Shown: piece by piece, positions 1-37,692 of the stretch
Layout of the letters: each line of letters starts with the position of its first letter
Numbering within the stretch: position 1 is the stretch's first letter
Virus record (IMG/VR): IMGVR_UViG_2645727775_000019
Span: 1-37,692 of that record
Length of the DNA: 37,692 nt
Direction: 5' to 3' (one strand)
DNA from: a virus
Taxonomy: Duplodnaviria; Heunggongvirae; Uroviricota; Caudoviricetes
Position numbers and translations under genes: made by a program
Notes under the pieces: generated by a model
Database searches by the model: none
What the model was told of the DNA's origin: nothing
What the model saw: the letters and a program-made list of their open reading frames with translations, nothing else

Positions 1-1158
1 ATGCTCACCGTTAAGCAGATTGAAGCAGCAAAGCCGAAAGAAAAACCATACCGCCTACTCGATGGTAATGGCCTGTACCTTTATGTCCCTGTATCAGGGA
101 AAAAGGTATGGCAGCTTCGCTACAAGATTGACGGTAAGGAGAAAATCCTGACCGTCGGAAAATATCCGCTTATGACTTTGCAGGAGGCAAGGGATAAGGC
201 ATGGACTGCGAGGAAAGACATCTCGGTTGGCATCGATCCGGTAAAGGCGAAAAAGGCTTCGTCTAACAACAATTCCTTTAGCGCCATTTACAAGGAATGG
301 TACGAGCACAAGAAGCAAGTCTGGTCAATAGGCTATGCAACTGAACTTGCAAAAATGTTTGATGACGACATTTTACCTATCATCGGCGGTCTTGAAATTC
401 AGGATATTGAGCCGATGCAACTGCTGGAAGTAATCCGCAGATTTGAAGATCGCGGTGCAATGGAACGAGCCAATAAAGCCCGCAGAAGATGCGGCGAGGT
501 TTTCCGTTACGCTATTGTCACCGGAAGGGCTAAATATAACCCGGCACCTGACCTTGCAGACGCCATGAAAGGATACCGCAAGAAGAACTTCCCGTTTCTT
601 CCAGCAGACCAGATCCCTGCATTCAACAAAGCACTGGCAACATTTTCAGGAAGCATCGTATCGCTCATTGCGACCAAAGTTTTACGCTACACAGCCCTAA
701 GAACGAAAGAGCTTCGTTCCATGCAATGGAAGAACGTCGATTTTGAAAACAGGATTATCACTATCGACGCCAGTGTGATGAAGGGCCGCAAGATTCATGT
801 TGTTCCTATGTCAGACCAGGTGGTTGAACTTCTCACTACGCTAAGCTCCATCACTAAACCAGTATCAGAGTTTGTTTTTGCCGGGCGCAACGATAAGAAG
901 AAGCCAATCTGCGAGAACGCGGTATTGCTTGTGATCAAACAAATCGGCTATGAGGGTCTGGAAAGCGGTCACGGATTCAGGCATGAATTCAGCACAATTA
1001 TGAACGAGCACGAATGGCCTGCTGACGCTATTGAAGTGCAACTGGCACATGCCAACGGCGGATCTGTGCGTGGGATTTACAACCATGCTCAGTATCTCGA
1101 TAAACGCAGAGAAATGATGCAATGGTGGGCGGACTGGCTTGATGAAAAGGTGGCATAG
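1..1158 (+). CDS. intS: P4-family tyrosine integrase (IntS-like)
   Basis: 385-aa ORF; N-terminus MLTVKQIEAAKPKEKPYRLLDGNGLYL is the typical P4-integrase arm-binding domain; C-terminal catalytic domain; length matches IntS. Confidence 0.9.
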   Translation: MLTVKQIEAAKPKEKPYRLLDGNGLYLYVPVSGKKVWQLRYKIDGKEKILTVGKYPLMTLQEARDKAWTARKDISVGIDPVKAKKASSNNNSFSAIYKEWYEHKKQVWSIGYATELAKMFDDDILPIIGGLEIQDIEPMQLLEVIRRFEDRGAMERANKARRRCGEVFRYAIVTGRAKYNPAPDLADAMKGYRKKNFPFLPADQIPAFNKALATFSGSIVSLIATKVLRYTALRTKELRSMQWKNVDFENRIITIDASVMKGRKIHVVPMSDQVVELLTTLSSITKPVSEFVFAGRNDKKKPICENAVLLVIKQIGYEGLESGHGFRHEFSTIMNEHEWPADAIEVQLAHANGGSVRGIYNHAQYLDKRREMMQWWADWLDEKVA

Positions 1159-3582: not shown

Positions 3583-4374
3583 TTAATACCCTACTGCAAT
3601 ATAAAAAACTGATTCACCAGCGTCCTGAGAACCTACCCCCGGAACGCCAGACCAGGCTTTGTTAATGAATGCAAAACCGGTATTACTCAGATCAGATGCT
3701 CTGTACATCGGGCTGAACATCCAGTAGTTGGCTACATATGTTTGTCCGAAAACAATGCCATAGCACTGATTTGTAAATGGCGTAGAAAATAATTTTCCAC
3801 CAGTACCAGCGATAGTCCCGAATCGCATCTGGAACCCATTCGGGAAATTAATTCCGCCTGCCGGTGAAGACCAGTAAGACATATCAGGTATTTGCCCAGC
3901 ACTATTTCCCACGTTTTTTGTTGCAACGGTTCCTAACCCAAGATTAGCTCTTGCATCAGATTTATTTGTTAACTCATAAAGATTATTTTCCTTTTGAAGT
4001 GCTCCTGTTATGCGTAAATCATCACCAGCGGCAACGGTTCCGACTGTCGTGCCCACATCCCTTTTCGCCGCTTCTCCTAAACCAAGGTTTTCGAGAGCCG
4101 TTTGCACAGTGCCATCCGATTTGATATCGCCAAACGGATTCTTGCGGCTTAACAGCAGCGCACGAAGTGCGGTAAGCAGCTGGTCATGCCGCCCTTTCTC
4201 CAGGCTGGCACCGGAGGCCTCCACCACGCTACAAAGTTCTTCCTGCAACATGTCAAAGTAGTCATCATCCAGATCGGTGGCAGGCGTGCCAGTCTGGGGG
4301 TTACCACGGGTAAAACCGTTCTTACCCGCGCCGAACTTATCCTTCTGCGCGGTTTTCGTGTCTATACGATGCAT
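3583..4374 (-). CDS. Tail fiber protein (short, 263 aa)
   Basis: N-terminal [21 protein letters not shown] and repeated ANLGLG-type fiber motifs; position just upstream of Tfa. Confidence 0.75.
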
Positions 4375-4962: not shown

Positions 4963-6011
4963 GAAATCGTCCCCAGAACCGCCAGTTCATTTTTTGCAAT
5001 GGAGATATTGTCCGCCGGTGCAAGCAACTGATGGCTGTATTCCCCGTTCGCACCGGAAATCGCTTCACTGATACGTGACACCTTCAGTTCTCCCTGCGGA
5101 TAACCATCACGCAGCAGGAACGAACGCAACTCGGCGGTGATGGCAGCCCGTATTTCCGGTGTGTCCGGCGTCACGCGGATATGAAAATCCACTTTATGCG
5201 CCACCGGCCTGAACACATACAAATCAGAGCCTGCCACCGGGGCCAGTGGCCAGATATGTTGTCTTGCCGCCGTTTCCGTTGATTCTTCCGGAATGGGATT
5301 AATCAGGTCACTGCTGGCAATCATCACACCGACAGTTCCCGTTCCCATCCAGTGACGGTATGTCCATGCGCGGGTAATGCCGGGCACTTCTTTAGCCCAG
5401 ACGACATAGTCCCCGTCAGCCCCGCCCTGCGGCGTCCAGTAATACCGCTCAATGACGCGGGCGCGCCACGTTTCCAGATCTTCAGTATCGAATCCGCCAG
5501 TCAGGGTATCTGCAACACCGGAAGACGGCAGACCATTCACCGGCGTGACCAGGATTAATGCCGTACCGTCGTCAGCGTTACCGACCGCGCCTGTAGTTGA
5601 GCAAGTGATCGGCACACGCAGGACACCACCGGAGCTGGTTGCATCGGCAGTTGCCGTGTACTGAACCAGGTCATCGCGCTGAATCACGCTCCCGGCAGTC
5701 ACCTTCAGGCCATCGCTGACACCTTCCCAGCGCATATACCCGCTGGCAGCCGTGGCCCCCTTGCGCGGACACCGTTTCATCGCAGCATGTCGCGCCAGCC
5801 AGGACTCATCGCACAGGTCAGGCAGCATATTCATTGCCAGATAATCGATGTACCCGTAAACCGTATGCAGCGCCGCCGCATACACCTTTGCCCGCACGTC
5901 TTCATCCATGCGCCGGAGCGTGTCGCTGACGTCCAGCCTGGCGAATAAATCGTTACGGAGCATACTGATATTTTCTGCCAGCGTCGGGCGCTGAAATTCA
6001 CTGTCCGCCAT
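4953..6011 (-). CDS. Baseplate J-like protein (Mu gp47-like)
   Basis: 352 aa; synteny with gp45/gp46-like genes; baseplate J family resemblance. Confidence 0.8.
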
Positions 6012-6426
6012 GCGTTATCGCACTCCACAGATCATCAAAAGAAATCATTACCGGTCCGTCACGACGCCAGAGAGTGATACTGTTACCCAGCTCATTAATC
6101 CCGGTGCGGCGGATATCCAGATCAATACGGGACACCACGCCGTCATCAATCATCCATTGCAGGCATTCGCGGATATACCCCCTTACCGTCTGCACCAGCT
6201 GATTGGTCAGTTTGCTGCGCTGAAGCAGCCACAGTCGGGAGCCGTAACGGTCATTCTGTACCGCAGGCCAGGTATCCCCCCACCATCCCATCGGGACGTC
6301 GGCGTTGTCATCAGGCTCCGCCCGCCGCCAGGTGAACAGGGAAATCACCACGGCGCGGGTCAGCGGATCCAGCGGTGCGCTGGCGCAGGTGCGTTTACCG
6401 TTCACCGTCAGCCACAGTTCCATCAT
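5998..6426 (-). CDS. Mu gp46-like baseplate protein
   Basis: 142 aa; between baseplate V-like and J-like genes. Confidence 0.7.
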   Translation of the reverse strand: MMELWLTVNGKRTCASAPLDPLTRAVVISLFTWRRAEPDDNADVPMGWWGDTWPAVQNDRYGSRLWLLQRSKLTNQLVQTVRGYIRECLQWMIDDGVVSRIDLDIRRTGINELGNSITLWRRDGPVMISFDDLWSAITHGGQ

Positions 6427-6971
6427 GCCTCCATCGCTTTATCAGGTTTGTCGGTGTTACTGCCCTGACCGTTCTCTCTGTGACGATGCCCGTTATAGGC
6501 AAGCCGCATCGCTGACATGGTGGTGCCGCCGGAGTCGCACAGGTCTTTCACCTGTCCTGTCACTTCCAGGTCCATTTCAAAACGTGCTTTAGGTGAATTG
6601 CGAAACGTGATCGTTTTACCTGCACCGTCCACCACGATCCCCTCCCGGGTCAGCGTCACGGACTGCCCCTGATCGTCATAGACAGCCACCTCACCCGTCT
6701 GCAGCCCTTTCAGGCGGTAGCGCCGGTCCGACACCGTAACAACCACCGCATGAGAACGGTCGCCATCCGGAAACAACACCACCGCTTCCGCACCGCTGTT
6801 TGCCCTTGCGGTAAAACCGTAGGGTTCAAGATGTTCAACCCCGGCTTTGGGTTCACCGGCAATCAGAGACACATCCACGGTCTGACATTTCGTGGCGGCA
6901 CTGATGCTTTTCACCACTGCCCGCCCAATCAGGCCGAGGAGTTGTCGCTGCATGGCTTCAATCGTCCTCAT
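6423..6971 (-). CDS. Baseplate assembly protein V / spike (Mu gp45-like)
   Basis: 182 aa; 4-nt overlap with downstream gene; family resemblance. Confidence 0.75.
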   Translation of the reverse strand: MRTIEAMQRQLLGLIGRAVVKSISAATKCQTVDVSLIAGEPKAGVEHLEPYGFTARANSGAEAVVLFPDGDRSHAVVVTVSDRRYRLKGLQTGEVAVYDDQGQSVTLTREGIVVDGAGKTITFRNSPKARFEMDLEVTGQVKDLCDSGGTTMSAMRLAYNGHRHRENGQGSNTDKPDKAMEA

Positions 6972-27975: not shown

Positions 27976-28625
27976 GCCGCCATCTCCCTGACCAGTTTTT
28001 CCGCCTGCTGGCGAACCTGCACCAGAAAGGCCTCACCACATGCCTCAAGTTCATCGCGCCCGATGTAGCTGATTGTCGGTCCCTTCCAGGTCTTGTCGAA
28101 AACAGCAATAGCACCAGCGAAGAACGCTCCTGTCGGCACCTGCTTCTCGTCCTTCGGGATAAACCAGGCAGGCAGTTCAAAACCAATACGCCCGCGAATA
28201 AAAGCAATATGGTCCGCATCTTCCGGCCACCACACTTCGCTGGTGGCAGCTTTGATCAGGAAAACATAGCGCCCGCCCTTATCACGCATGGCACTGGCAT
28301 GTTTCATGATGTAACGCATGCCGGTGATGTATTGCCCCTCATGCTGACTGGCGCGGCTGTATGGAGGATTTCCAAAGGCAGCACCTTTAAGCTCCGCAAG
28401 ACGTTCTGACCAGTCATGCGCCAGCGCGTTGTCTTCCGCCGTGTAATACGCGGCGCATTTGGCGTTATCACCGTCAGTAAACAGATCCAGAACAAACGGG
28501 CCAAACAGGGTGTTAATTCCCCAGAAAATGTTGTCCGGTGTGCGCCACTGATCGCCCACTTCCTTCAGTTCATGGGCTGGTTTGTTTCGCAACTCCACCA
28601 GCGCCTGGCAATATTTATTACTCAT
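27972..28625 (-). CDS. Phage N6-adenine DNA methyltransferase (Dam-type)
   Basis: NPPY catalytic motif (FGNPPYSRA); ATG start at MSNKYCQ overlaps upstream stop as TAATG. Confidence 0.75.
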   Translation of the reverse strand: MSNKYCQALVELRNKPAHELKEVGDQWRTPDNIFWGINTLFGPFVLDLFTDGDNAKCAAYYTAEDNALAHDWSERLAELKGAAFGNPPYSRASQHEGQYITGMRYIMKHASAMRDKGGRYVFLIKAATSEVWWPEDADHIAFIRGRIGFELPAWFIPKDEKQVPTGAFFAGAIAVFDKTWKGPTISYIGRDELEACGEAFLVQVRQQAEKLVREMAA

Positions 28626-29113
28626 TAAGCCCCCACGTAATTCCCTGACAGATACCACTCATCACCCGATACAGCGCGCTTGCTGCTTTTCCGTAAGCAC
28701 CGCTCACGATGCGCCAGAAAATTGTTTCGTTCTGGCTGGGAGTGGCTTTCACGGAATGCCGCCATCCACACCGTTGCAGCACGACGGTATAAGCCCCTTG
28801 ACTCCAGTTCTTCAGCCTGGCGGGTCAGGCACAAAATCACCCGGGGATCGTTAGTGCCGACATAGAAATTGCGCACAGGTCTGGTTTCACGAACTGGTTG
28901 TGGTTCCGACTCCTGCGCTCTCTCAGTCAGGCGCGGGAAATGTCTGCGTGTATCTCCTTCACAACGGTGAGCCACACGCCCACTCTGACGTAACTTGCTT
29001 GCTGACTGCAGAACGCGCTGCCGTGAGTAACCTGCAAAAGCATCCGCAATGTCTCCGGAAGTACACCCCGGATGGGCTTCAATGAATTTCTGAACTTCAT
29101 TCAAAAGACTCAT
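28625..29113 (-). CDS. Hypothetical regulator with C-terminal ANR/PerC-like motif
   Basis: Start at ATG (MSLLNEVQKF) with GGGGGTG site; C-terminal RGLYRRAATVWMAAF resembles ANR-family small regulators. Confidence 0.45.
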   Translation of the reverse strand: MSLLNEVQKFIEAHPGCTSGDIADAFAGYSRQRVLQSASKLRQSGRVAHRCEGDTRRHFPRLTERAQESEPQPVRETRPVRNFYVGTNDPRVILCLTRQAEELESRGLYRRAATVWMAAFRESHSQPERNNFLAHRERCLRKSSKRAVSGDEWYLSGNYVGA

Positions 29114-29115
29114 AA

Positions 29116-30057
29116 TCACCCCCTGAATCCTGCCGGGATCTGGCTGTAGTCCACATTGTCGTAACTGGCTTTGAAGTACGGGTCTTCACGTTTTTCTGTG
29201 TGCGTGCTGACGGACGGCGATAAGCGCAGGGAAAGCTCATCCCATTTTTCCCGCAACTTCGACGGGCTGAGCACGTTACGGCACCAGAACGGATCGCGGC
29301 TGACGCGGCTGTACATCTCGCAGATTTGTTTGTGAGTACGACCATCCTGCACACACATCAGGCGAATTTCGTTTGCCCAGGCTGTCCAGTTAGGTTCTTT
29401 GGGACGAACCACCTCGCCGTCACATTCGGCGGCCTGCTCGTACAGGGCGATGATTTTTTTCCAGAGCCACTGTGCGCAGGTCAAATCATCCTGCGTTCCC
29501 CACTGGCGCTTTTTAGGGCTGAATACAACCGCATCAGGATGGCGAGTTAAAAAATCCTGTTCATCCATCTGCGTGTCCGGTTGCGAAGCGTCCGGACGAG
29601 AAGGTTTTTTATCTGATGGATCATGTTTTGATTTTACTGACGGATCCCCGCCAGATTCTGACGGGTGAAAACCCGCTTTTTTGCCAGATTTCGACGCATC
29701 AAATTTTGACGGGTCAGATTTTGATGCGTCAGATTTTGACGGGTCAGAATCTGACAGTTGAGAAAATGCCGCTGCCTGAAGCTTCGCAACGTTAAGCTGA
29801 TAAACATTCGACGCATTGCGGTTACCCTGGCGACGCGCCTTACGCGTTAACCAGCCTTCTGCTTCCAGCCGTGCGATAGCCGTTCTGACGGTACTCATCC
29901 CCGCGCCAATCTGGCGGGCAATGGTTTCAATTGATGGCCAGCACACACCTTCGTCATTACTGAAATCAGCCAGGCGGGCCATAATTGCCACGCTGGATAA
30001 TTTCATGCCTGACGCTGCGCAACCATCCCATACATAGCCGGTTAATTTAGTGCTCAT
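29116..30057 (-). CDS. Replication initiator (lambda O-like, HTH N-terminal domain), origin embedded in gene
   Basis: 313 aa; N-terminal HTH replication-protein domain; central linker encoded by tandem DNA repeats (iterons). Confidence 0.7.
   Translation of the reverse strand: MSTKLTGYVWDGCAASGMKLSSVAIMARLADFSNDEGVCWPSIETIARQIGAGMSTVRTAIARLEAEGWLTRKARRQGNRNASNVYQLNVAKLQAAAFSQLSDSDPSKSDASKSDPSKFDASKSGKKAGFHPSESGGDPSVKSKHDPSDKKPSRPDASQPDTQMDEQDFLTRHPDAVVFSPKKRQWGTQDDLTCAQWLWKKIIALYEQAAECDGEVVRPKEPNWTAWANEIRLMCVQDGRTHKQICEMYSRVSRDPFWCRNVLSPSKLREKWDELSLRLSPSVSTHTEKREDPYFKASYDNVDYSQIPAGFRG
29653..29760. repeat. Iteron array (putative ori) inside the O-like gene
   Basis: Three perfect and at least two degenerate ~15-bp tandem units ATTTTGAC(G/A)(G/C)GTCAG, each with internal TGAC/GTCA symmetry; AT-rich stretch adjacent at ~29600-29645. 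Confidence 0.6.
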
Positions 30058-30226
30058 GACCGACCTCTATTTCCCTGAATTTACGACGAAACTGTTCGAG
30101 CGGACTGAAGCATTCATGCTCATAGCCTTCGCGGAGGTAGATAACCCGTTGTGTTTCCGGTTCCCAACGAATGACTCTGACGGGCACTCCGTAGTGATCT
30201 TTGAACCAGCGGTTAACTTGTCGCAA
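30047..30226 (-). CDS. Candidate DUF4222-like small protein (59 aa) in alternative frame, TTG start
   Basis: AGGAG 8 nt upstream of TTG; translation [59 protein letters not shown]; overlaps ORF 30067..30405. Confidence 0.4.
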
Positions 30227-30405
30227 AGGACTGTCTCCTTCTGCCGGTTGAAATCACCCACAGCCCACTCTGCAAAGCTGTGGGTTACAATTTCCCTGTC
30301 ACCTGGTACATTCACTGCATAGCAATATTCCACCTTCGCTTTTCCACCCGGAACAGGAAGCGCAATCAGTTGCGAGCGACGGTAGTGTGTTGTTAAACTG
30401 TTCAT
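30067..30405 (-). CDS. Hypothetical protein (ORF A); 3' portion probably not genuine coding
   Basis: ATG directly after the CII-like stop; first ~55 aa look protein-like, the remainder overlaps the alternative-frame small gene. Confidence 0.35.
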
Positions 30406-30971
30406 GCGTTAGTTTCTCCACAACCAGAAGCAATCGACGCCACGACGCCCGGAGCTGCACACTCGCGGGCGTCATTACTTTCTGAAATGCAAAAAATTTT
30501 GTAGACAAGTGCTGCATGCTCCTGCAGCTTCGAAATTGAGAGATACAGCTCGTCGTTAATTGCTGTCTTCTCATGCGGTTCCACCACACCGTCTTCGATT
30601 GCTGAACGAATCTGTTTTGAATAACTGCCGATCTGTTCAATGACTTCCAGCAGACGCTGGTTAATATCGGCGTTGTCCACATCCTCGACGTCAGGAAGAG
30701 ACACAAAGACGCCATTTGCAGACTGCGCCACAGCATCAGCAATGAAGTGAGTGCCACCAGCACGCTGTAAAACCATTGCCCATCCCAGCGGGAAAATCTG
30801 ATCGCCATCTGCACGAAGGCGGTTGAATAAAGCGTTTTCTGTTACATCGAGCCAGTCAGCCGCTTCAGCGTAACCACCCGGCAACGCCGCGATAGTTTTT
30901 CTGACAGCTTTCACGTACCACTCAGGCTGTTTTTCTATTTTCCAGTGATGCTTACCCACGATTAGCCTCAT
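30402..30971 (-). CDS. CII-like phage regulatory protein
   Basis: 189 aa immediately downstream of cro; resemblance to phage CII/CP76-type regulators. Confidence 0.55.
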
Positions 30972-31002
30972 CGTTCTGTGGTTAAAAATTGAAAGTGTTC
31001 TG

Positions 31003-31203
31003 CTAATCTTTCGGATAGATATCCGGTCTTAAGTCAGATTTCGTAATTGCACCTGACGTGCATTGCTCAAGTTTTTTAGCCAGCACAAAACTGGCTTTTT
31101 TATAGCCATTGAAAACCAGCCGTAAGTAGCCAGGTGTTGAGCCAACTTTTCCGGCCAACTCGCCCTGCTGTTCTTTGGTTAAAGAGTCCCAATACGCTTT
31201 CAT
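31003..31203 (-). CDS. cro: Cro-like HTH repressor
   Basis: 66 aa from MKAYWDSLTKEQQGELAGKVG; divergent from cI across operator region; longer ORF-track version would run into cI. Confidence 0.75.
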   Translation of the reverse strand: MKAYWDSLTKEQQGELAGKVGSTPGYLRLVFNGYKKASFVLAKKLEQCTSGAITKSDLRPDIYPKD

Positions 31204-31293
31204 ACAATATGTACCTCCTGTGTACATATTACATGATTGAAATGAACCTTCAAGATACTTGTACCTTAACGGTACAAGGGTTTTAATTTCGTT
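31204..31293. promoter_or_regulatory. OR-like operator/promoter region between cro and cI
   Basis: Perfect palindromes ATATGTAC-N7-GTACATAT (31207-31229) and CTTGTACC-N5-GGTACAAG (31258-31278), both of form TGTAC-N7-GTACA. Confidence 0.6.
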
Positions 31294-31968
31294 ATGAAAA
31301 CAATCCATGACATCCGGCGGTCTAACGCCAGAAAACTGAGAGATGGTGTTGGCGGGAATTCTTCCTTTGCCACTATGATTGATCGCGAGCCAACCCAGAC
31401 CAGCAGGTTTATGGGAGATGGTGCTACTAAAAATATCGGTGACAGCATGGCACGACACATCGAAAAATGTTTCGACCTACCTGTCGGATGGCTCGATCAA
31501 GAACACCAGACAACGAACATCACAAAAAAACCTGATGTTTCAATCACTAATAAACAAATCACATTAGTCCCTGTCATATCATGGGTACAGGCCGGAGCAT
31601 GGAAAGAAGTTGGATATTCTGAGGTTGATTTGAGCACAGCAGAAACGTATCCCTGCCCTGTACCCTGTGGGGAAATGACTTATATCTTGCGGGTGATAGG
31701 TGATTCAATGATTGATGAGTACCGCCCGGGAGACATGATTTTTGTCGATCCTGAAGTACCTGCCTGCCACGGTGACGACGTTATTGCATTGATGCACGAT
31801 ACAGGTGAAACCACCTTCAAAAGGTTAATAGAAGATGGGACACAGCGTTATCTCAAAGCGTTAAACCCAAACTGGCCTGAGCCTTACATTAAGATCAACG
31901 GTAATTGCTCTATAATTGGTACAGTGATTTTCTCAGGAAAACCAAGAAGATACAAAATCAAAGCCTAA
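31294..31968 (+). CDS. cI: CI-like repressor (HTH plus S24 autopeptidase domain)
   Basis: 224 aa; C-terminal GDSM Ser and FKRL Lys dyad intact. Confidence 0.85.
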   Translation: MKTIHDIRRSNARKLRDGVGGNSSFATMIDREPTQTSRFMGDGATKNIGDSMARHIEKCFDLPVGWLDQEHQTTNITKKPDVSITNKQITLVPVISWVQAGAWKEVGYSEVDLSTAETYPCPVPCGEMTYILRVIGDSMIDEYRPGDMIFVDPEVPACHGDDVIALMHDTGETTFKRLIEDGTQRYLKALNPNWPEPYIKINGNCSIIGTVIFSGKPRRYKIKA

Positions 31969-31980
31969 TCAATGTTTATG

Positions 31981-32004
31981 AACCTGCTTCGGCAGGTTTT
32001 TTTA
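31981..32004 (+). terminator. Intrinsic terminator after cI
   Basis: AACCTGC-TTCG-GCAGGTT hairpin followed by TTTTTTTAT. Confidence 0.7.
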
Positions 32005-32007
32005 TAC

Positions 32008-32036
32008 TTGACAATGTACCTTTGAGATACATAATG
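32008..32036 (+). promoter_or_regulatory. pL-like promoter with overlapping operator-like half sites
   Basis: TTGACA, 16-17 nt spacer, CATAAT/ATAATG; TGTAC half-sites similar to OR inside and beside the spacer. Confidence 0.5.
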
Positions 32037-32212
32037 TACCCAAGAGAAACAACGAACAGGCAGGACGCCCACGAAGTAGCCGCCTGGGGCATATGAAGTC
32101 CAGGATGATTCGTTGAGTCATGTTGTGCCACTAGGCACTCATGTTAAAGCAGGTGTATGAAATGAAAGTCCAGATTTTAAACAATAACTGTGAAGTCGTT
32201 TGGGCGTAAAAC

Positions 32213-32419
32213 ATGACCGCGCGTAGACCAAGGGAGGAAAAAGTGGGAATAGTTAGAAATCAAGCAGATATATTGAAAATCAGCTCTGAATTACTTGGAG
32301 TTTTGAAAAGTGAGCTCACCGCACATGGCATCGAGCCCACTGACGAAAATTTAAGATGGGTTTTGTCGATTATTCAACAATCACTCAAGCCCAGCCTCAG
32401 CAAACTTTTTATCGAGTAG
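32213..32419 (+). CDS. Hypothetical small protein (68 aa; alternative GTG start at 32243 with GGGAGG site)
   Basis: AT-rich; Arg-rich N-terminus MTARRPREEK; first gene after pL-like promoter. Confidence 0.4.
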   Translation: MTARRPREEKVGIVRNQADILKISSELLGVLKSELTAHGIEPTDENLRWVLSIIQQSLKPSLSKLFIE

Positions 32420-32572
32420 TGCTTCGAACTTATCGTAAAGCTTGCTTATGTCGTCTATCGGGTTTTCTGACGTACTGTAATTTTTATCTGATGTCATGGC
32501 AGCAGTCTGATATGCAGTGTGAGTCTTAACCGATAGTTGGAATAAATAAAGAATTTTTTCTTCTTTGGTCAT
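32381..32572 (-). CDS. Hypothetical small protein (63 aa), convergent and overlapping with previous
   Basis: ATG with AAGGAAA site; MTKEEKILYLFQLSVKTHTAY...; 39-nt 3' overlap with the plus-strand small gene. Confidence 0.4.
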   Translation of the reverse strand: MTKEEKILYLFQLSVKTHTAYQTAAMTSDKNYSTSENPIDDISKLYDKFEALLDKKFAEAGLE

Positions 32573-32682
32573 AACTATTTCCTTCTTGGCTATATGAAAA
32601 CACCAAGATACCACCGAGCCTGAAGTGGTGAAAAGACAGGCACATAACAGCTAAGTATTTTCAACCAAAGAGAATCCTTAGC

Positions 32683-32960
32683 GTTGTGGTGAATGCGGCT
32701 CAGCGCACGCGGGTTAAGGTTGAGGCTGACAGTCGACCTTCTGTGGATACCCACCCGTCTGGTGTGCAACCTTCGCCAGGCACCGGGAGGCACCCGGCAC
32801 CACAACTTTATGCTGTGTGTAGTCCTGGCGGTACCAGTTTGTACCCTTGCTTCCGGCTGGTACCGTCCTTTTTACAAAACAGAGAAGAGCATCACCGGAC
32901 GACGGGCTCATAACCCAATCCATCCGGGCGGCTGCCACCGCAGGTGTTCTTCTCTGTTTT
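32683..32960 (+). other. GC-rich non-coding segment with multiple long-range inverted repeats (candidate structured RNA or cis-regulatory element)
   Basis: GTTGTGGTG/CACCACAAC (9 bp), CGGTACCAG/CTGGTACCG (9 bp, then CCTTTTT), AAACAGAGAAGA/TCTTCTCTGTTT (12 bp); translations in all frames are not protein-like. Confidence 0.3.
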
Positions 32961-33010
32961 GTGGAGAAACTAATCGGCCTTGCAGGGTCGATATGATGAG
33001 GAGCAGCAAA

Positions 33011-33373
33011 ATGGCTAGCGAACGCAGTACTGATGTGCAGGCATTTATCGGGGAGCTGGACGGCGGCGTATTTGAAACCAAAATCGGCGCAGTTCTCAGT
33101 GAAGTCGCTTCCGGTGTGATGAACACGAAAACCAAAGGTAAGGTCTCACTCAACCTGGAAATCGAACCATTTGATGAGAACCGTGTGAAAATCAAACACA
33201 AACTCTCATATGTTCGCCCGACTAACCGCGGGAAAATTTCCGAAGAAGACACCACCGAAACGCCGATGTATGTCAATCGCGGTGGTCGCCTGACTATTCT
33301 GCAGGAAGACCAGGGACAGTTACTGACTCTTGCCGGTGAACCTGACGGAAAACTCCGCGCAGCAGGTCGTTAA
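33011..33373 (+). CDS. yfdP: YfdP-like prophage protein
   Basis: 120 aa from MASERS with AGGAG site; the ORF-track N-terminal extension is non-protein-like. Confidence 0.6.
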   Translation: MASERSTDVQAFIGELDGGVFETKIGAVLSEVASGVMNTKTKGKVSLNLEIEPFDENRVKIKHKLSYVRPTNRGKISEEDTTETPMYVNRGGRLTILQEDQGQLLTLAGEPDGKLRAAGR

Positions 33374-33438
33374 TATCGTTTTTAATTAACTGATTATTTA
33401 TCTCATCACTGAATATCTTTATATAGTGAGGACTTATT

Positions 33439-34263
33439 ATGTCTCAGAACTTAGACGCAACCGCAATTAATCAAATCCATGCCCTTATTTCTGCTCAGGG
33501 TGTTAATGAAATTATCAGTAAGATTGGTGCCGATGCTGTGGCATTGCCTGAGAATTTCCGCATTCATGATCTGGAAAAATTTAATTTAAATCGCTTCCGT
33601 TTCCGTGGTGCGCTTTCCACTGCCAGCATCGATGACTTTACCCGTTATTCTAAAGATCTTGCAGATGAAGGCACCCGCTGCTTTATCGATGCTGATAATA
33701 TGCGTGCCGTCAGTGTGCTTAACCTGGGTACTATTGATGAACCAGGTCACGCAGATAACACCGCCACTCTCAAACTGAAAAAGACAGCACCGTTCTCTGC
33801 TCTGTTGTCTGTTAACGGCGAGCGTAACTCCCAGAAATCACTGGCAGAATGGATTGAAGACTGGGCCGACAACCTTGTGGGCTTTGATGCTAATGGTGAC
33901 GCCATTCAGGCAACAAAAGCGGCTGCGGCAATCCGTAAAATCACGATTGAAGCAAACCAGACCGCTGATTTTGAAGATAATGACTTCAGCGGCAAACGCT
34001 CCCTGATGGAATCTGTCGAAGCGAAGACCAAAGACATTATGCCAGTGGCATTTGAATTTAAATGCGTTCCGTTTGAAGGTCTGAAAGAACGTCCGTTTAA
34101 ATTACGCCTCAGCATTATCACTGGCGATCGTCCTGTACTGGTTCTGCGCATTATTCAGCTGGAAGCGGTGCAGGAAGATATGGCTAACGAATTTCGTGAT
34201 CTGCTTGTTGAGAAATTCAAAGACAGCAAAGTAGAAACCTTTATTGGTACTTTCACCGCCTGA
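33439..34263 (+). CDS. yfdQ: YfdQ-like protein (DUF2303-type)
   Basis: 274 aa; size and position match yfdQ of CPS-53. Confidence 0.7.
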
Positions 34264-34390
34264 TTTCATTACTGCAAATGCCCCTGCGGGGGCATTTATG
34301 GAAACGTAATTAACTCAATAATCACCGGATGGTGAGGGCTTCCTTTTACCCAAACTCAGCGCGGTGCAGCGCATATACGTGGAGAACAAA

Positions 34391-34927
34391 ATGTCATTTA
34401 TTAAAACTTTTTCCGGGAAGCATTTTTATTATGACAAGATAAATAAAGACGACATCGTGATTAACGATATCGCGGTTTCCCTTTCAAATATCTGCCGCTT
34501 TGCCGGTCATCTTTCTCACTTCTACAGTGTCGCCCAACATGCGGTGCTTTGCAGCCAGCTGGTGCCGCAGGAATTTGCTTTTGAAGCGTTAATGCATGAT
34601 GCAACAGAAGCGTATTGCCAGGACATCCCCGCACCACTGAAACGCCTTCTTCCTGACTATAAACGGATGGAAGAAAAAATAGATGCAGTAATCCGTGAGA
34701 AATACGGGTTACCTCCTGTTATGAGCACGCCAGTGAAATATGCCGATCTCATTATGCTGGCAACCGAACGCCGTGATCTCGGGCTTGATGATGGCTCTTT
34801 CTGGCCTGTACTGGAAGGCATCCCGGCAACAGAGATGTTCAACGTGATTCCACTGGCACCGGGTCATGCCTACGGGATGTTTATGGAACGTTTTAACGAT
34901 TTATCGGAGTTACGCAAATGCGCATGA
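34391..34927 (+). CDS. yfdR: HD-domain phosphohydrolase (YfdR-like 5'-deoxynucleotidase)
   Basis: 178 aa from MSFIKTF with GGAG site; H...HD metal-binding motif (LMHDATEA). Confidence 0.7.
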   Translation: MSFIKTFSGKHFYYDKINKDDIVINDIAVSLSNICRFAGHLSHFYSVAQHAVLCSQLVPQEFAFEALMHDATEAYCQDIPAPLKRLLPDYKRMEEKIDAVIREKYGLPPVMSTPVKYADLIMLATERRDLGLDDGSFWPVLEGIPATEMFNVIPLAPGHAYGMFMERFNDLSELRKCA

Positions 34928-35280
34928 ATGTTTTCGAAATGGAAGGGTTTCTTCGCGGGAAATGTGTACCGCGAGATCTGAAAGTGAACGAAACAAATGC
35001 TGAGTACCTGGTACGTAAATTCGACGCGCTTGAAGCTAAATGTGCGGCACTGGAAAACAAAATAATACCAGTGTCAGCTGAACTGCCACCAGCAAATGAA
35101 AGTGTTCTGTTATTTGATGCTAATGGAGAAGGCTGGCTGATTGGCTGGCGTTCTCTCTGGTACACCTGGGGACAAAAAGAAACCGGAGAATGGCAGTGGA
35201 CATTTCAGGTTGGGGACCTTGAAAACGTCAATATCACTCACTGGGCAGTAATGCCAAAAGCACCGGAGGCTGGAGCATAA
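34918..35280 (+). CDS. yfdS: YfdS-like protein
   Basis: 120 aa; overlaps upstream gene; Trp-rich C-terminal domain. Confidence 0.6.
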   Translation: MRMNVFEMEGFLRGKCVPRDLKVNETNAEYLVRKFDALEAKCAALENKIIPVSAELPPANESVLLFDANGEGWLIGWRSLWYTWGQKETGEWQWTFQVGDLENVNITHWAVMPKAPEAGA

Positions 35281-35585
35281 TGACCACATTTACCAATAAA
35301 GAACTGATTAAAGAAATCAAAGAACGAATCAGCAGCCTAGAGGTTCGAGACGATATTGAGCGCCGTGCTTATGAAATCGCACTCGTATCTCTGGAAGTAG
35401 AGCCAGATGAACGCGAAGCCTATGAATTATTCATGGAAAAGCGTTTCGGTGACTTAGTAGATCGTCGGAGAGCAAAAAACGGCGATAACGAATACATGGC
35501 ATGGGATATGACTCTCGGTTGGATCGTCTGGCAGCAACGAGCTGGTATCCATTTTTCAACAATGTCACAGCAAGAGGTGAAATAA
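35280..35585 (+). CDS. yfdT: YfdT-like protein
   Basis: 101 aa; start overlaps previous stop. Confidence 0.6.
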   Translation: MTTFTNKELIKEIKERISSLEVRDDIERRAYEIALVSLEVEPDEREAYELFMEKRFGDLVDRRRAKNGDNEYMAWDMTLGWIVWQQRAGIHFSTMSQQEVK

Positions 35586-35716
35586 TGGAGCCATACAGCC
35601 TCACACTCGATGAGTCCTGTTCATTTCTCAAGATATCCAGACCTACCATTGCTGCATCAATGCGGCTTTTTATTGCCTGATTTGCAGGTTCGATTCCATA
35701 TTCGGAGATAGCACTC

Positions 35717-35917
35717 ATGCAACACGAACTACAACCTGATTCACTGGTTGATTTGAAATTCATCATGGCTGATACTGGCTTCGGTAAGACCTTCATCTAT
35801 GACCGGATTAAGTCCGGCGACCTGCCTAAAGCCAAAGTTATCCACGGACGAGCAAGATGGTTATATCGTGACCATTGTGAATTCAAAAATAAGCTCTTAA
35901 GCCGCGCCAATGGGTAA
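35717..35917 (+). CDS. torI: AlpA/TorI-type excisionase (recombination directionality factor)
   Basis: 66 aa MQHELQPDSLVDLKFIMADTGFGKTFIYDRIKSGDLPKAKV...; winged-helix Xis fold family; adjacent to attR. Confidence 0.85.
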   Translation: MQHELQPDSLVDLKFIMADTGFGKTFIYDRIKSGDLPKAKVIHGRARWLYRDHCEFKNKLLSRANG

Positions 35918-35990
35918 AATAGCGGGTAAAATATTTTTCACATCTAAAAAACACCATTCCAATCAATCCCCTGCCGCCTCAAGTAGATGT

Positions 35991-36005
35991 CTGCAGGGGA
36001 CACCA
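35991..36005 (+). repeat. attR core: copy of tRNA 3' end (CTGCAGGGGACACCA)
   Basis: Acceptor-stem 3' half plus CCA; matches argW 3' end as recalled; plus orientation as expected when int lies downstream of the tRNA at attL. Confidence 0.6.
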
Positions 36006-36444
36006 GATACCCTTCAAACGATATCTACCTTCACCCCGTAAAAGATAAGTTTGGCAGCACATTTGCCCTATCTACTCATTTTTCCTGCAACAGGTTGAAA
36101 TCTCAACACGGTCAGAAAACGCTGATGACTAAACAGCCCTGGGCCGGGCGATGTAACCATCACACACAATCCTGATCGCGAAATATGGCGTGACTTGATA
36201 CTTCACTCCACAATGCTTTCCTTGATGAATTCGCAGGCCCGTGATACACGGGACAGGTCGCTGAATTACGACAATGCCCTGGAAATCAGCGAGCCGTGTA
36301 TCCAGAGTACATTTGAGCGACTGTACCAGAACATGAATGAGGCGTTTGGATTAGGCGATTATTAGCAGGGCTAAGCATTTTGGTATTATTATTTTCCGGT
36401 TGAGGGATATAGAGCTATCGACAACAACCGGAAAAAGTTTACGT

Positions 36445-37692
36445 TTATATTGCTGAAGGTACTGGCGTTTCCATCACTATTTGCTCACGTTTTTTACTCA
36501 GGAAGAAAATGCCAAATAGCAACATCAGGCAGACAATACCCGAAATTGCGAAAAAAACCGTCTGGTAGCCTGCGTGGTCAAAGAGTATCCCAGTCGGCGT
36601 TGAAAGCAGCACAATCCCCAACGAACTGGCAATTTGAAAACCAATCAGAAAGATCGTCGACGACAGGCGCTTATCAAAATTTGCCACGCTGTATTTGAAG
36701 ACGGATATGACACAAAGTGGAACCTCAATGGCATGTAACAGCTTCACTAATGAAATAATCCAGGGGTTAACGAATAGCGCGCAGGAAAGGATACGCAACG
36801 CCATAATCACAACACCGATAAGTAATGCATTTTTTGGCCCTACCCGATTCACAAAGAAAGGAATAATCGCCATGCACAGCGCTTCGAGTACCACCTGGAA
36901 TGAGTTGAGATAACCATACAGGCGCGTTCCTACATCGTGTGATTCGAATAAACCTGCATAAAAGACAGGAAAGAGTTGTTGATCAAAAATGTTATAGAAA
37001 GACCACGTCCCCACAATAAATATGACGAAAACCCAGAAGTTTCGATCCTTGAAAACTGCGATAAAATCCTCTTTTTTTACCCCTCCCGCATCCGCCGCTA
37101 TGCACTGGTGATCCTTATCTTTAAAACGCATGTTGATCATCATAAATACAGCGCCAAATAGCGAGACCAACCAGAAGTTGATATGGGGACTGATACTAAA
37201 AAATATACCGGCAAAGAACGCGCCAATAGCATAGCCAAAAGATCCCCAGGCGCGCGCTGTTCCATATTCGAAATGAAAATTTCGCGCCATTTTTTCGGTG
37301 AAGCTGTCAAGCAAACCGCATCCCGCCAGATACCCCAGGCCAAAAAAGAGCGCCCCCAGAATTAGACCTGCAGAAAAATTGCTTTGCAGTAACGGTTCAT
37401 AAACGTAAATCATAAACGGTCCGGTCAAGACCAGAATGAAACTCATACACCAGATGAGCGGTTTCTTCAGACCGAGTTTATCCTGAACGATGCCGTAGAA
37501 CATCATAAATAGAATGCTGGTAAACTGGTTGACCGAATAAAGTGTACCTAATTCCGTCCCTGTTAATCCTAGATGTCCTTTCAGCCAAATAGCGTATAAT
37601 GACCACCACAGCGACCAGGAAATAAAAAAGAGAAATGAGTAACTGGATGCAAAACGATAGTACGCATTTCTGAATGGAATATTCAGTGCCAT
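36445..37692 (-). CDS. cscB: LacY-family oligosaccharide:H+ symporter (sucrose permease CscB-like), host gene
   Basis: 415 aa, 12-TM MFS permease with LacY-like N-terminus; outside the prophage. Confidence 0.75.
   Translation of the reverse strand: MALNIPFRNAYYRFASSYSFLFFISWSLWWSLYAIWLKGHLGLTGTELGTLYSVNQFTSILFMMFYGIVQDKLGLKKPLIWCMSFILVLTGPFMIYVYEPLLQSNFSAGLILGALFFGLGYLAGCGLLDSFTEKMARNFHFEYGTARAWGSFGYAIGAFFAGIFFSISPHINFWLVSLFGAVFMMINMRFKDKDHQCIAADAGGVKKEDFIAVFKDRNFWVFVIFIVGTWSFYNIFDQQLFPVFYAGLFESHDVGTRLYGYLNSFQVVLEALCMAIIPFFVNRVGPKNALLIGVVIMALRILSCALFVNPWIISLVKLLHAIEVPLCVISVFKYSVANFDKRLSSTIFLIGFQIASSLGIVLLSTPTGILFDHAGYQTVFFAISGIVCLMLLFGIFFLSKKREQIVMETPVPSAI

Follow-up and report, generated by a model that had tools for sequence, protein, structure and literature searches.

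The yfdPQRST genes in the early-left region of an intact SfV-like prophage: native context and a possible role in the takeover of host DNA replication

The genes yfdPQRST are already described from the CPS-53 (KplE1) prophage of E. coli K-12 and are annotated in thousands of E. coli genomes. The YfdR protein of K-12 binds domain I of DnaA in a Phe46-dependent manner and competes with DiaA and DnaB, which share the DnaA Phe46 surface with it (PMC4776307). Multicopy yfdQRS or yfdQRT blocks initiation at oriC, for which YfdR alone is insufficient (PMC4776307). However, a yfdQRST deletion had no effect on initiation, the phenotype being seen with multicopy expression only, and the authors of that study, who proposed a role in an ancestral propagative phage, also allow for an overexpression artefact (PMC4776307). 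YfdR, a protein of the HD phosphohydrolase fold, has no homology to DiaA, Dps, B. subtilis SirA or lambda P; the last is another phage inhibitor of DnaA, but it binds domain III rather than domain I. Related genes are found in two functional temperate phages, SfV (orf29-31, YfdQ 98% identical) and ST64B (sb37-sb36-sb35, YfdQ 57% identical), both of which carry them in the order P-Q-R after the repressor gene, while ST64B has DUF262, Ea22-like and exoribonuclease genes downstream in place of yfdS and yfdT. A triad of yfbR-like, yfdQ and yfdP genes is common in the early-left operons of lambdoid phages (PMC12315714). In lambda and the Stx phages, the exo-xis region occupies the same position as the block studied here, in the distal pL operon just before xis, and the literature connects it with inhibition of host DNA replication and with an influence on the choice between lysis and lysogeny; according to Sergueev (2002), as cited in PMC3824215, host DNA replication is inhibited when the lambda exo-xis genes are expressed from pL. 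The genes orf60a, orf63, orf61, orf73, ea22 and ea8.5 of lambda belong to families other than yfdPQRST.

In the present analysis, the window, i.e., the whole stretch of 37,692 nucleotides under study, is, judged by its sequence, an intact SfV-like prophage of the myovirus type, integrated at argW. Its virion genes are 96–98% identical to those of SfV, SfIV, SfII and vB_EcoM-720R4. The integrase gene intS lies at the other end of the prophage (1–1153, 97% identity to K-12), and homology to K-12 ends at 36005, which corresponds to pawZ. Of this prophage type, K-12 keeps only four pieces, corresponding to 1–1153, 4049–4312, 28359–29824 and 32992–36005 of the window, and CPS-53 aligns as a deletion derivative of it. 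In CPS-53 the block has the same gene content, order and spacing and is flanked in the same way (ypdJ, torI and attR/pawZ); K-12 no longer carries the repressor, cro, PL or an sRNA-like element (29825–32991), all of which the window keeps. In K-12, yfdP abuts a truncated O gene and iterons, unlike the intact early-left context observed here. The window shows the native context of the CPS-53 remnant, namely the early-left operon of an SfV-like phage.

A preliminary description of this DNA had proposed, from ORF sizes and position, a yfdPQRST-like operon with an HD-domain protein between the immunity region and torI. All of this was borne out by the ORF list and by protein comparison: the block (33011–35585) is, on alignment, the yfdPQRST gene set of CPS-53/KplE1, with two amino-acid differences from K-12 in YfdP, one each in YfdQ and YfdT, and none in YfdR, YfdS (both 100% identical) or TorI. 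At the DNA level, approximately 32992–36005 has 98.6% identity to CPS-53. The RefSeq annotation of near-identical genomes gives the same five genes, and the order P-Q-R-S-T, with all genes co-oriented, is annotated in relatives as well as in K-12. The overlapping stops and starts that had been described hold for yfdR/yfdS (10 nt) and yfdS/yfdT (1 nt), but not for the first three genes, which are separated by gaps of 65 nt (yfdP-yfdQ) and 127 nt (yfdQ-yfdR). The start of yfdR was placed at an ATG behind GGAG, whereas the mechanical ORF begins at a GTG at 34364. Antisense ORFs inside the block were dismissed, since they gave no family matches and fall inside conserved genes that are nearly identical. 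Downstream, the segment 35585–35680 of the ypdJ-like ORF matches the excisionase family phrog_2907 (E 4.7e-4), and the annotation of a relative gives it as an incomplete HTH gene. TorI produced the only PADLOC match among the five proteins and their neighbours, to mad1, which was set aside as probably an HTH family resemblance. The features of the region are collected in Table 1.

Table 1. Features from the repressor gene to the right end of the prophage (positions in the window).
Feature	Position	Strand	Remarks
cI-like prophage repressor, S24 autopeptidase type	31294–31968	+	Pfam Peptidase_S24 E 1.5e-26; ymfK/LexA family in relatives
Terminator-like hairpin after repressor gene	31980–31999	+	Terminator scan
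PL-like early-left promoter, TTGACA-16-CATAAT	32008–32035	+	Predicted; 11/12 sigma-70 consensus match
Operator TGTACCTTTGAGATACA	32015–32031	+	Predicted by consensus; in spacer of PL-like promoter
First small ORF of early-left transcript	32213–32419	+	68 aa; phrog_15476 E 7e-49
STnc100/PasD-like prophage sRNA candidate	32661–32876	+	Rfam RF02076, 39.5 bits (gathering score 47), E 3e-6
yfdP	33011–33373	+	120 aa; phrog_204 E 1e-49; PF27127 on homologues; 98% identical to K-12
yfdQ	33439–34263	+	274 aa; DUF2303, PF10065 E 1.9e-93
GC-rich hairpin AAAUGCCCC-UGCG-GGGGCAUUU	34276–34297	+	yfdQ-yfdR gap; from fold
yfdR	34391–34927	+	178 aa; HD-domain phosphohydrolase; phrog_318 E 1.5e-109; PDB 2gz4 E 1.3e-13
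yfdS	34918–35280	+	120 aa; variable N-terminal module and DUF551; phrog_583
yfdT	35280–35585	+	101 aa; without defined domain; phrog_660 E 1.4e-30
ypdJ-like ORF	35501–35680	+	Remnant of second excisionase-type HTH gene
Terminator-like hairpin in ypdJ-like ORF	35651–35666	+	Terminator scan
torI	35717–35917	+	Excisionase/recombination directionality factor; 100% identical to K-12; phrog_66
attR core CTGCAGGGGACACCA	35991–36005	+	3' end of tRNA-Arg argW, K-12 pawZ; right prophage end

The arrangement in front of the block runs in the order cI, terminator, PL-like promoter, yfdPQRST and torI. The PL-like promoter was the best site in the interval 31900–36450, and no further promoter-like site was found on the + strand before 36362. 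The window contains just three copies of the motif TGTAC-N7-GTACA, at 31210 and 31260 in the cI/cro intergenic region, and in the PL-like promoter; a first operator pattern, ATGTAC-N9-TACAT, was rejected as being no better than chance. Because the early-left promoter carries the operator motif of the prophage repressor, yfdPQRST is predicted to be silent in the lysogen. The sRNA candidate, which scores below the gathering score of its Rfam family, terminates on folding in a terminator-like hairpin (32838–32867) with a U-run, 135 nt upstream of yfdP, and transcripts from PL would therefore need read-through or antitermination to reach yfdP; no antiterminator was identified here. The hairpin in the yfdQ-yfdR gap may represent an attenuator or a module boundary. 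The K-12 literature lists yfdPQ as an operon of its own (PMC9181523).

The block is, by its distribution, a mosaic of a YfdP-YfdQ pair, YfdR, and the two variable small proteins YfdS (DUF551) and YfdT, and its five genes are, on the same comparison, not co-inherited as a single system. Diverse YfdQ loci were drawn from GenBank phages, as a scan of IMG/VR gave nothing but near-identical prophages of E. coli. In all five distant phages compared (Xanthomonas MET23-P3, Salmonella ST64B, E. coli ArgO145, Pseudomonas PG1 and Vibrio 24E30.2), the gene immediately upstream of yfdQ encodes a YfdP homologue, while YfdR is found only in ST64B, and YfdS and YfdT in none of them. Among 80 E. coli-type viral contigs, YfdP is present in every one and YfdR in 78, with YfdS and YfdT often absent or divergent. 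Conservation of the adjacent YfdP-YfdQ pair extends from phages of Xanthomonas to those of Vibrio; in enterobacterial phages YfdR usually joins it, and the last two genes vary.

YfdP-YfdQ stands out as a phage module of its own, with broad conservation and without a recognisable fold. YfdQ matches PF10065 over residues 7–272 with 313 bits against a gathering score of 26.6. Models of YfdP and YfdQ made with AlphaFold2 (mean pLDDT 78 and 69) gave no solved-fold match in PDB libraries that did not include 9o7m. In that entry a YfdQ homologue has been solved (9o7m_C); the chain is that of a CP2-like phage of Xanthomonas and is 98.8% identical to the MET23-P3 protein. With its 36 chains of this sequence, the entry suggests a large homo-oligomeric assembly or filament; it contains none of 24 early-region neighbours and none of the portal-to-nozzle virion proteins of that phage; no paper mentioning 9o7m was found in a literature search.

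YfdR has the H...HD...D metal-binding motif of the HD phosphohydrolase superfamily (H50, H69-D70 and D119). The residues H50, H69, D70, E73, D78 and D119 are invariant or at least 90% conserved among 35 diverse homologues and align with H33, H68, D69, E72, D77 and D137 of YfbR, so that the catalytic residues, which the preliminary description had left to an alignment to confirm, are in place. YfdR shares the HD fold and the aligned metal and catalytic residues with the 5'-deoxynucleotidase YfbR and with Atu1052 (PDB 2gz4). [quoted passage not shown] The family comprises 22,724 representatives at E<=1e-3, and 333 phage records, those of lytic and jumbo phages among them, contain HD proteins of the YfdR type.

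We consider it fairly likely, at slightly better than an even chance, that yfdPQRST forms the distal part of a repressor-controlled PL operon, and that YfdR with its partners stops host replication from oriC after induction or infection. In a lysogen, the CI-type repressor would hold the block silent; upon induction or infection, the block would be transcribed from PL. YfdR would then compete with DiaA and DnaB for the Phe46 surface of domain I of host DnaA, and jointly with YfdQ plus either YfdS or YfdT may shut down new rounds of replication at the host oriC. This reading is also in keeping with the plaque formation by a resident phage that YfdQ overproduction triggers (bioRxiv 10.1101/413146). 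The intact HD site may additionally dephosphorylate deoxynucleotides, and the relevance of this catalysis, like the contribution of YfdP and YfdQ, is inferred, as is the action of YfdR on DnaA during the lytic growth of the intact phage. As a discovery the block carries little weight, since the genes are named and the activity of YfdR is published. The native context found here supports, and makes testable, the idea of Noguchi and Katayama that a propagative phage once profited from inhibiting DnaA.

On the whole, the block looks more like a phage tool for host replication takeover than like an anti-phage defence. The preliminary description had drawn a link to nucleotide-depleting anti-phage systems, and in such a system YfdR would deplete deoxynucleotide pools in the lysogen against superinfecting phages, with the DUF proteins as sensors or regulators. 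The intact, conserved catalytic residues of YfdR fit this, as does the fact that dNTP triphosphohydrolases are found among the small HD proteins of phages (YfdR weakly matches phrog_7076, 'dATP triphosphohydrolase', at E 1e-4), and the decayed K-12 prophage still retains the genes. However, none of the five proteins matched a PADLOC defence model even at E<=1, those of the dNTPase and deaminase type included, and the genes sit in an early lytic operon behind a predicted repressor-operator promoter and are not co-inherited. In addition, the homologues in lytic and jumbo phages and the low published nucleotide affinities speak against it, and phage production is promoted, not blocked, by YfdQ overproduction (bioRxiv 10.1101/413146). 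The proposed link hence gained no support, and we regard a defence role as very improbable. On another reading, YfdR is mainly a nucleotide enzyme of lytic growth that reshapes precursor pools for phage DNA synthesis by dNMP dephosphorylation or specific dNTP hydrolysis, and its binding to DnaA would be secondary or due to overexpression. The strong conservation of the catalytic residues across the very large family speaks for this, as do the wide occurrence of the family among lytic and jumbo phages that infect hosts with divergent DnaA and its label in PHROG and in RefSeq, 'deoxyribonucleoside 5' monophosphate phosphatase'. Still, this is a rather unlikely explanation in view of the low affinities and the scores below the curated YfbR family thresholds; moreover, deletion of yfdR left the CMP yield of an engineered strain unchanged, whereas three other deletions did change it (PMC10870394), and the need for yfdQ together with yfdS or yfdT in the replication phenotype would be left unexplained.

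It could also be argued that the genes have been domesticated for host tolerance of H2O2, acid and hydroxyurea, serving the bacterium and not the phage. Deletions of CPS-53, yfdQ and yfdS raise H2O2 sensitivity (Wang 2010, as cited by others), and the host regulator SrsR binds the yfdO/yfdP spacer in K-12. Nevertheless, the SrsR boxes of K-12 are iterons of the phage origin moved beside yfdP by a deletion that is absent here, the prophage in the window looks intact with the block in its phage promoter context, and the genes are conserved in free phages, so we give this possibility very little credence. Different again is the idea that YfdP-YfdQ, with or without the other genes, constitutes an unrecognised module for DNA recombination, repair or end protection. 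The pair adjoins RecT, exonuclease and SSB genes in ArgO145 and MET23-P3, and in a Vibrio phage its neighbour is ssb; the yfdQ deletion is weakly sensitive to MMS as well as H2O2, and the 36 chains of the homologue in 9o7m would suit a large oligomer or filament. We consider such a module improbable. With more reason, though only tentatively, YfdP-YfdQ could be an autonomous early module with an undescribed host-takeover or anti-defence function, which could enable YfdR to block DnaA. The intact prophage offers a natural test system for the function of the pair.

At the distal end of the block, YfdS and YfdT showed no similarity by BLASTP to the Ea22-like proteins of ST64B and ArgO145, which leaves position as the basis of the parallel with the exo-xis region. 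YfdS matches DUF551 (PF04448) marginally over residues 50–117, with 22.2 bits against a gathering score of 22.0, and this domain is reported in the literature from V2 variants of Ea22.

On the best-supported view, the yfdP, yfdQ, yfdR, yfdS and yfdT block is a set of accessory genes that a temperate phage expresses early in lytic growth. All five genes have been described and named before, and the key activity is in the literature. The preliminary description had called them yfdPQRST-like on the strength of their sizes, which the ORF list reproduces exactly on the plus strand, and homology bears this out: window positions 32992-36005 share 98.6% DNA identity with K-12 MG1655, and the proteins differ from their K-12 counterparts at two (YfdP), one (YfdQ, YfdT) or no (YfdR, YfdS, and also TorI) amino acids. 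The identification is confirmed beyond chance. By megablast, the region is present in 4,385 of 5,426 complete E. coli genomes, with the labels yfdP, yfdQ, yfdR (5'-deoxynucleotidase), yfdS, yfdT and torI. The overlapping stops and starts also described earlier hold for yfdR/yfdS (10 nt) and yfdS/yfdT (1 nt), whereas gaps of 65 nt and 127 nt separate yfdP from yfdQ and yfdQ from yfdR. The latter gap, together with the GC-rich hairpin within it, agrees with the listing of yfdPQ as a separate transcription unit in K-12 (PMC9181523). Each of the five proteins is acidic or close to neutral.

The window holds a complete prophage, whose virion genes are 96-98% identical to those of the Shigella and E. 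coli myoviruses SfV, SfIV, SfII and vB_EcoM-720R4, and whose attR core matches the 3' end of the tRNA-Arg gene argW (pawZ in K-12), with host DNA beyond. The host gene to the right, which we take to be the sucrose permease gene cscB, differs from dsdC, present at the same junction in K-12 and strain 1217KP. CPS-53, the cryptic K-12 prophage with the same five genes, can be aligned to the window only at 1-1153, 4049-4312, 28359-29824 and 32992-36005, which makes it a deletion derivative of the intact SfV-like prophage type seen here. It lacks the entire immunity region and the genes for the virion; one deletion (29825-32991) accounts for the loss of cro, of cI and of all that lies from cI to yfdP. 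In K-12, the host regulator SrsR has been reported to bind repeats in the yfdO/yfdP spacer (PMC9181523); what the window adds is an intact regulatory context and the recognition of these "SrsR boxes" as, probably, phage-origin iterons, which the deletion would have moved beside yfdP.

Features of the prophage, its early-left region and the adjoining host DNA (window coordinates)
Feature	Position	Strand	Remarks
intS integrase	1-1153		97% identical to K-12
O-like replication gene	29116-30057	-	contains the repeat cluster
Repeat cluster	29651-29754		TCAGATTTTGA-type, 15-bp spacing; probable phage origin iterons
cro/YdaS-like gene	31003-31206	-
Predicted operators, TGTAC-N7-GTACA	31210-31226, 31260-31276		cI/cro intergenic region
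S24-type repressor gene	31294-31968
Terminator-like hairpin	31980-31999		right after repressor gene
PL-like promoter	32008-32035	+	TTGACA-16-CATAAT; 11/12 sigma-70 consensus; best site of region
Predicted operator, TGTAC-N7-GTACA	32015-32031		spacer of PL-like promoter
Small ORF	32213-32419	+	68 aa; phrog_15476
Convergent small ORF	32381-32614	-	63-77 aa; phrog_2605
STnc100-like sRNA candidate	32661-32876	+	RF02076, 39.5 bits vs gathering score 47, E 3e-6
yfdP	33011-33373	+	120 aa
yfdQ	33439-34263	+	274 aa
GC-rich hairpin	34276-34297		yfdQ-yfdR gap (fold)
yfdR	34391-34927	+	178 aa from ATG behind GGAG; mechanical ORF starts at GTG 34364
yfdS	34918-35280	+	120 aa
yfdT	35280-35585	+	101 aa
ypdJ-like ORF	35501-35680	+	truncated second excisionase-like gene; overlaps yfdT end
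Terminator-like hairpin	35651-35666		ahead of torI
torI	35717-35917
attR core CTGCAGGGGACACCA	35991-36005		right prophage end; identical to K-12 pawZ tRNA-Arg fragment
Host ORF	36445-37692	-	415 aa; right of attR

The promoter, operators and terminators were recognised by their agreement with consensus patterns, not by experiment. At up to one mismatch, the 37.7 kb contain only three copies of the inverted repeat TGTAC-N7-GTACA, where chance would give 0.6, and these copies are restricted to the cI/cro interval and the spacer of the promoter resembling the lambda early-left promoter PL; with cI followed by a terminator and then PL/OL, this points to a lambda-like layout of left and right operators (OL/OR). 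Downstream of the PL-like promoter, a consensus scan found no plus-strand promoter-like site before 36362, and the order is small ORFs, sRNA-like element, yfdP to yfdT, ypdJ, hairpin and torI, so that the block would occupy the distal early-left operon, directly before the excisionase gene torI. The exo-xis region of lambda has the same position, directly ahead of the excisionase, and expression of its genes from pL inhibits replication of the host DNA (Sergueev 2002, as cited in PMC3824215).

Several smaller elements accompany the block. The PL-like promoter and the sRNA-like element are separated by two small ORFs, which overlap convergently and belong to phage protein families without known function; the one on the minus strand would run antisense to early-left transcription. 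The STnc100-like candidate has a strong terminal hairpin (GGUACCAG...CUGGUACC) and a U-run, 135 nt 5' of yfdP, and the same stretch is labelled "frameshifted hypothetical protein" in a near-identical genome; STnc100 is related to PasD prophage sRNAs (2026 preprint). The C-terminal part of the ypdJ-like ORF resembles an excisionase N-terminus (phrog_2907, E 4.7e-4), so that a second xis-type gene probably once stood upstream of torI, of which this ORF is what remains. TorI itself has a PADLOC match, to model mad1 (mads_1), at E 7.6e-14, and we do not read this as a MADS system, the match being probably mere family resemblance of Xis/AlpA-type HTH proteins.

YfdR matches the HD families weakly (PF12917, 24.3 bits, cut-off 25.9; NF003009, 19.9 bits, cut-off 122) and falls clearly in phrog_318, "deoxyribonucleoside 5' monophosphate phosphatase" (E 1.5e-109), with Atu1052 (PDB 2gz4, E 1.3e-13) as its nearest solved relative. 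Since H50, H69, D70, E73, D78 and D119 are invariant or at least 90% conserved among 35 diverse homologues and align with the motif residues of the 5'-deoxynucleotidase YfbR, the HD protein proposed earlier retains its catalytic residues. We take these six residues to be metal-binding and catalytic. The family numbers 22,724 representatives at E<=1e-3, and members turn up in 333 phage records, among them those of lytic and jumbo phages that infect Caulobacter, Bacillus, Ruegeria and other hosts.

Experimental work on the K-12 proteins, from which those of the window differ little or not at all, comes from Noguchi and Katayama 2016 (PMC4776307). They recovered yfdQRST as genes that, in multicopy, suppress hda-185 over-initiation, showed that YfdR binds DnaA, and found that multicopy yfdQRS or yfdQRT inhibits initiation at oriC, in the wild type too. 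Deletion had no initiation phenotype; the authors consider an overexpression artefact possible, and suggest that an ancestral phage, still able to propagate, made use of this function. In a lysogen of the present phage, the block would be silent under the CI-type repressor; on induction, it would be expressed from PL, and YfdR would target domain I of DnaA, stopping new rounds of host replication. The sequence analysis itself establishes what the genes are, where they lie, how promoter and operators are arranged, how modular the block is and that the active site is conserved, and the published work establishes DnaA binding and a block of initiation on overexpression. We infer this timing in the phage life cycle, as well as any part that HD catalysis and the partner proteins may have in it.

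The make-up of the block varies among phages. When its five proteins were compared by tblastn with the YfdQ loci of five distant phages (YfdQ identity 38% in Xanthomonas MET23-P3, 57% in Salmonella ST64B, 52% in E. coli ArgO145, 43% in Pseudomonas PG1 and 41% in Vibrio 24E30.2), a YfdP homologue (33-60% identity) lay directly upstream each time, YfdR was present in ST64B only (67%), and YfdS and YfdT were found in none. Among 80 IMG/VR contigs with nearly identical YfdQ, YfdP occurs in all and YfdR in 78, and 31 have both YfdS and YfdT at >=90% identity; in the remaining contigs, YfdS and/or YfdT are absent or divergent (51-88% identity). The block is a mosaic in which YfdP-YfdQ form a separate conserved module, a pattern that agrees with the yfbR-like/yfdQ/yfdP triad described as common in lambdoid early-left operons, where it co-occurs with complete Rec modules and P and Q have no known function (Genome Res. 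2025, PMC12315714).

An HD phosphohydrolase had also suggested, in the preliminary description, an anti-phage defence by nucleotide depletion. [quoted passage not shown] The strongest rival to an early lytic role against host replication is a purely metabolic YfdR that supplies phage DNA precursors, which may coexist with DnaA binding; deletion of yfdR left the CMP yield of an engineered strain unchanged (PMC10870394). A cryptic recombination function of YfdP and YfdQ is unlikely, because the pair co-occurs with full Rec modules and neither protein shows fold similarity in the structure libraries searched.

A YfdQ homologue is present in the PDB (9o7m chain C, "YfdQ Protein", E 3e-44) as 36 chains of one sequence, derived from a Xanthomonas CP2-like phage and sharing 98.8% identity with the MET23-P3 homologue (5962-6786). 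The first YfdQ chain listed is C, and chains A and B must therefore be other molecules; none of the MET23-P3-type early-region neighbours and virion proteins searched for is in the entry, and no publication on it was found in the literature searched. YfdP carries the newer Pfam family PF27127, and its model (pLDDT 69) has a long helix, a meander of three strands and a tail that is disordered yet conserved; no known fold gave an informative match. No defined domain was found in YfdT. In YfdS, a variable N-terminal module is joined by a match to DUF551 that is marginal (22.2 vs 22.0 bits); DUF551 occurs also in an Ea22 variant (PMC10834534). Overproduction of YfdQ yielded plaques from a strain with the resident phage SW1 (bioRxiv 10.1101/413146).
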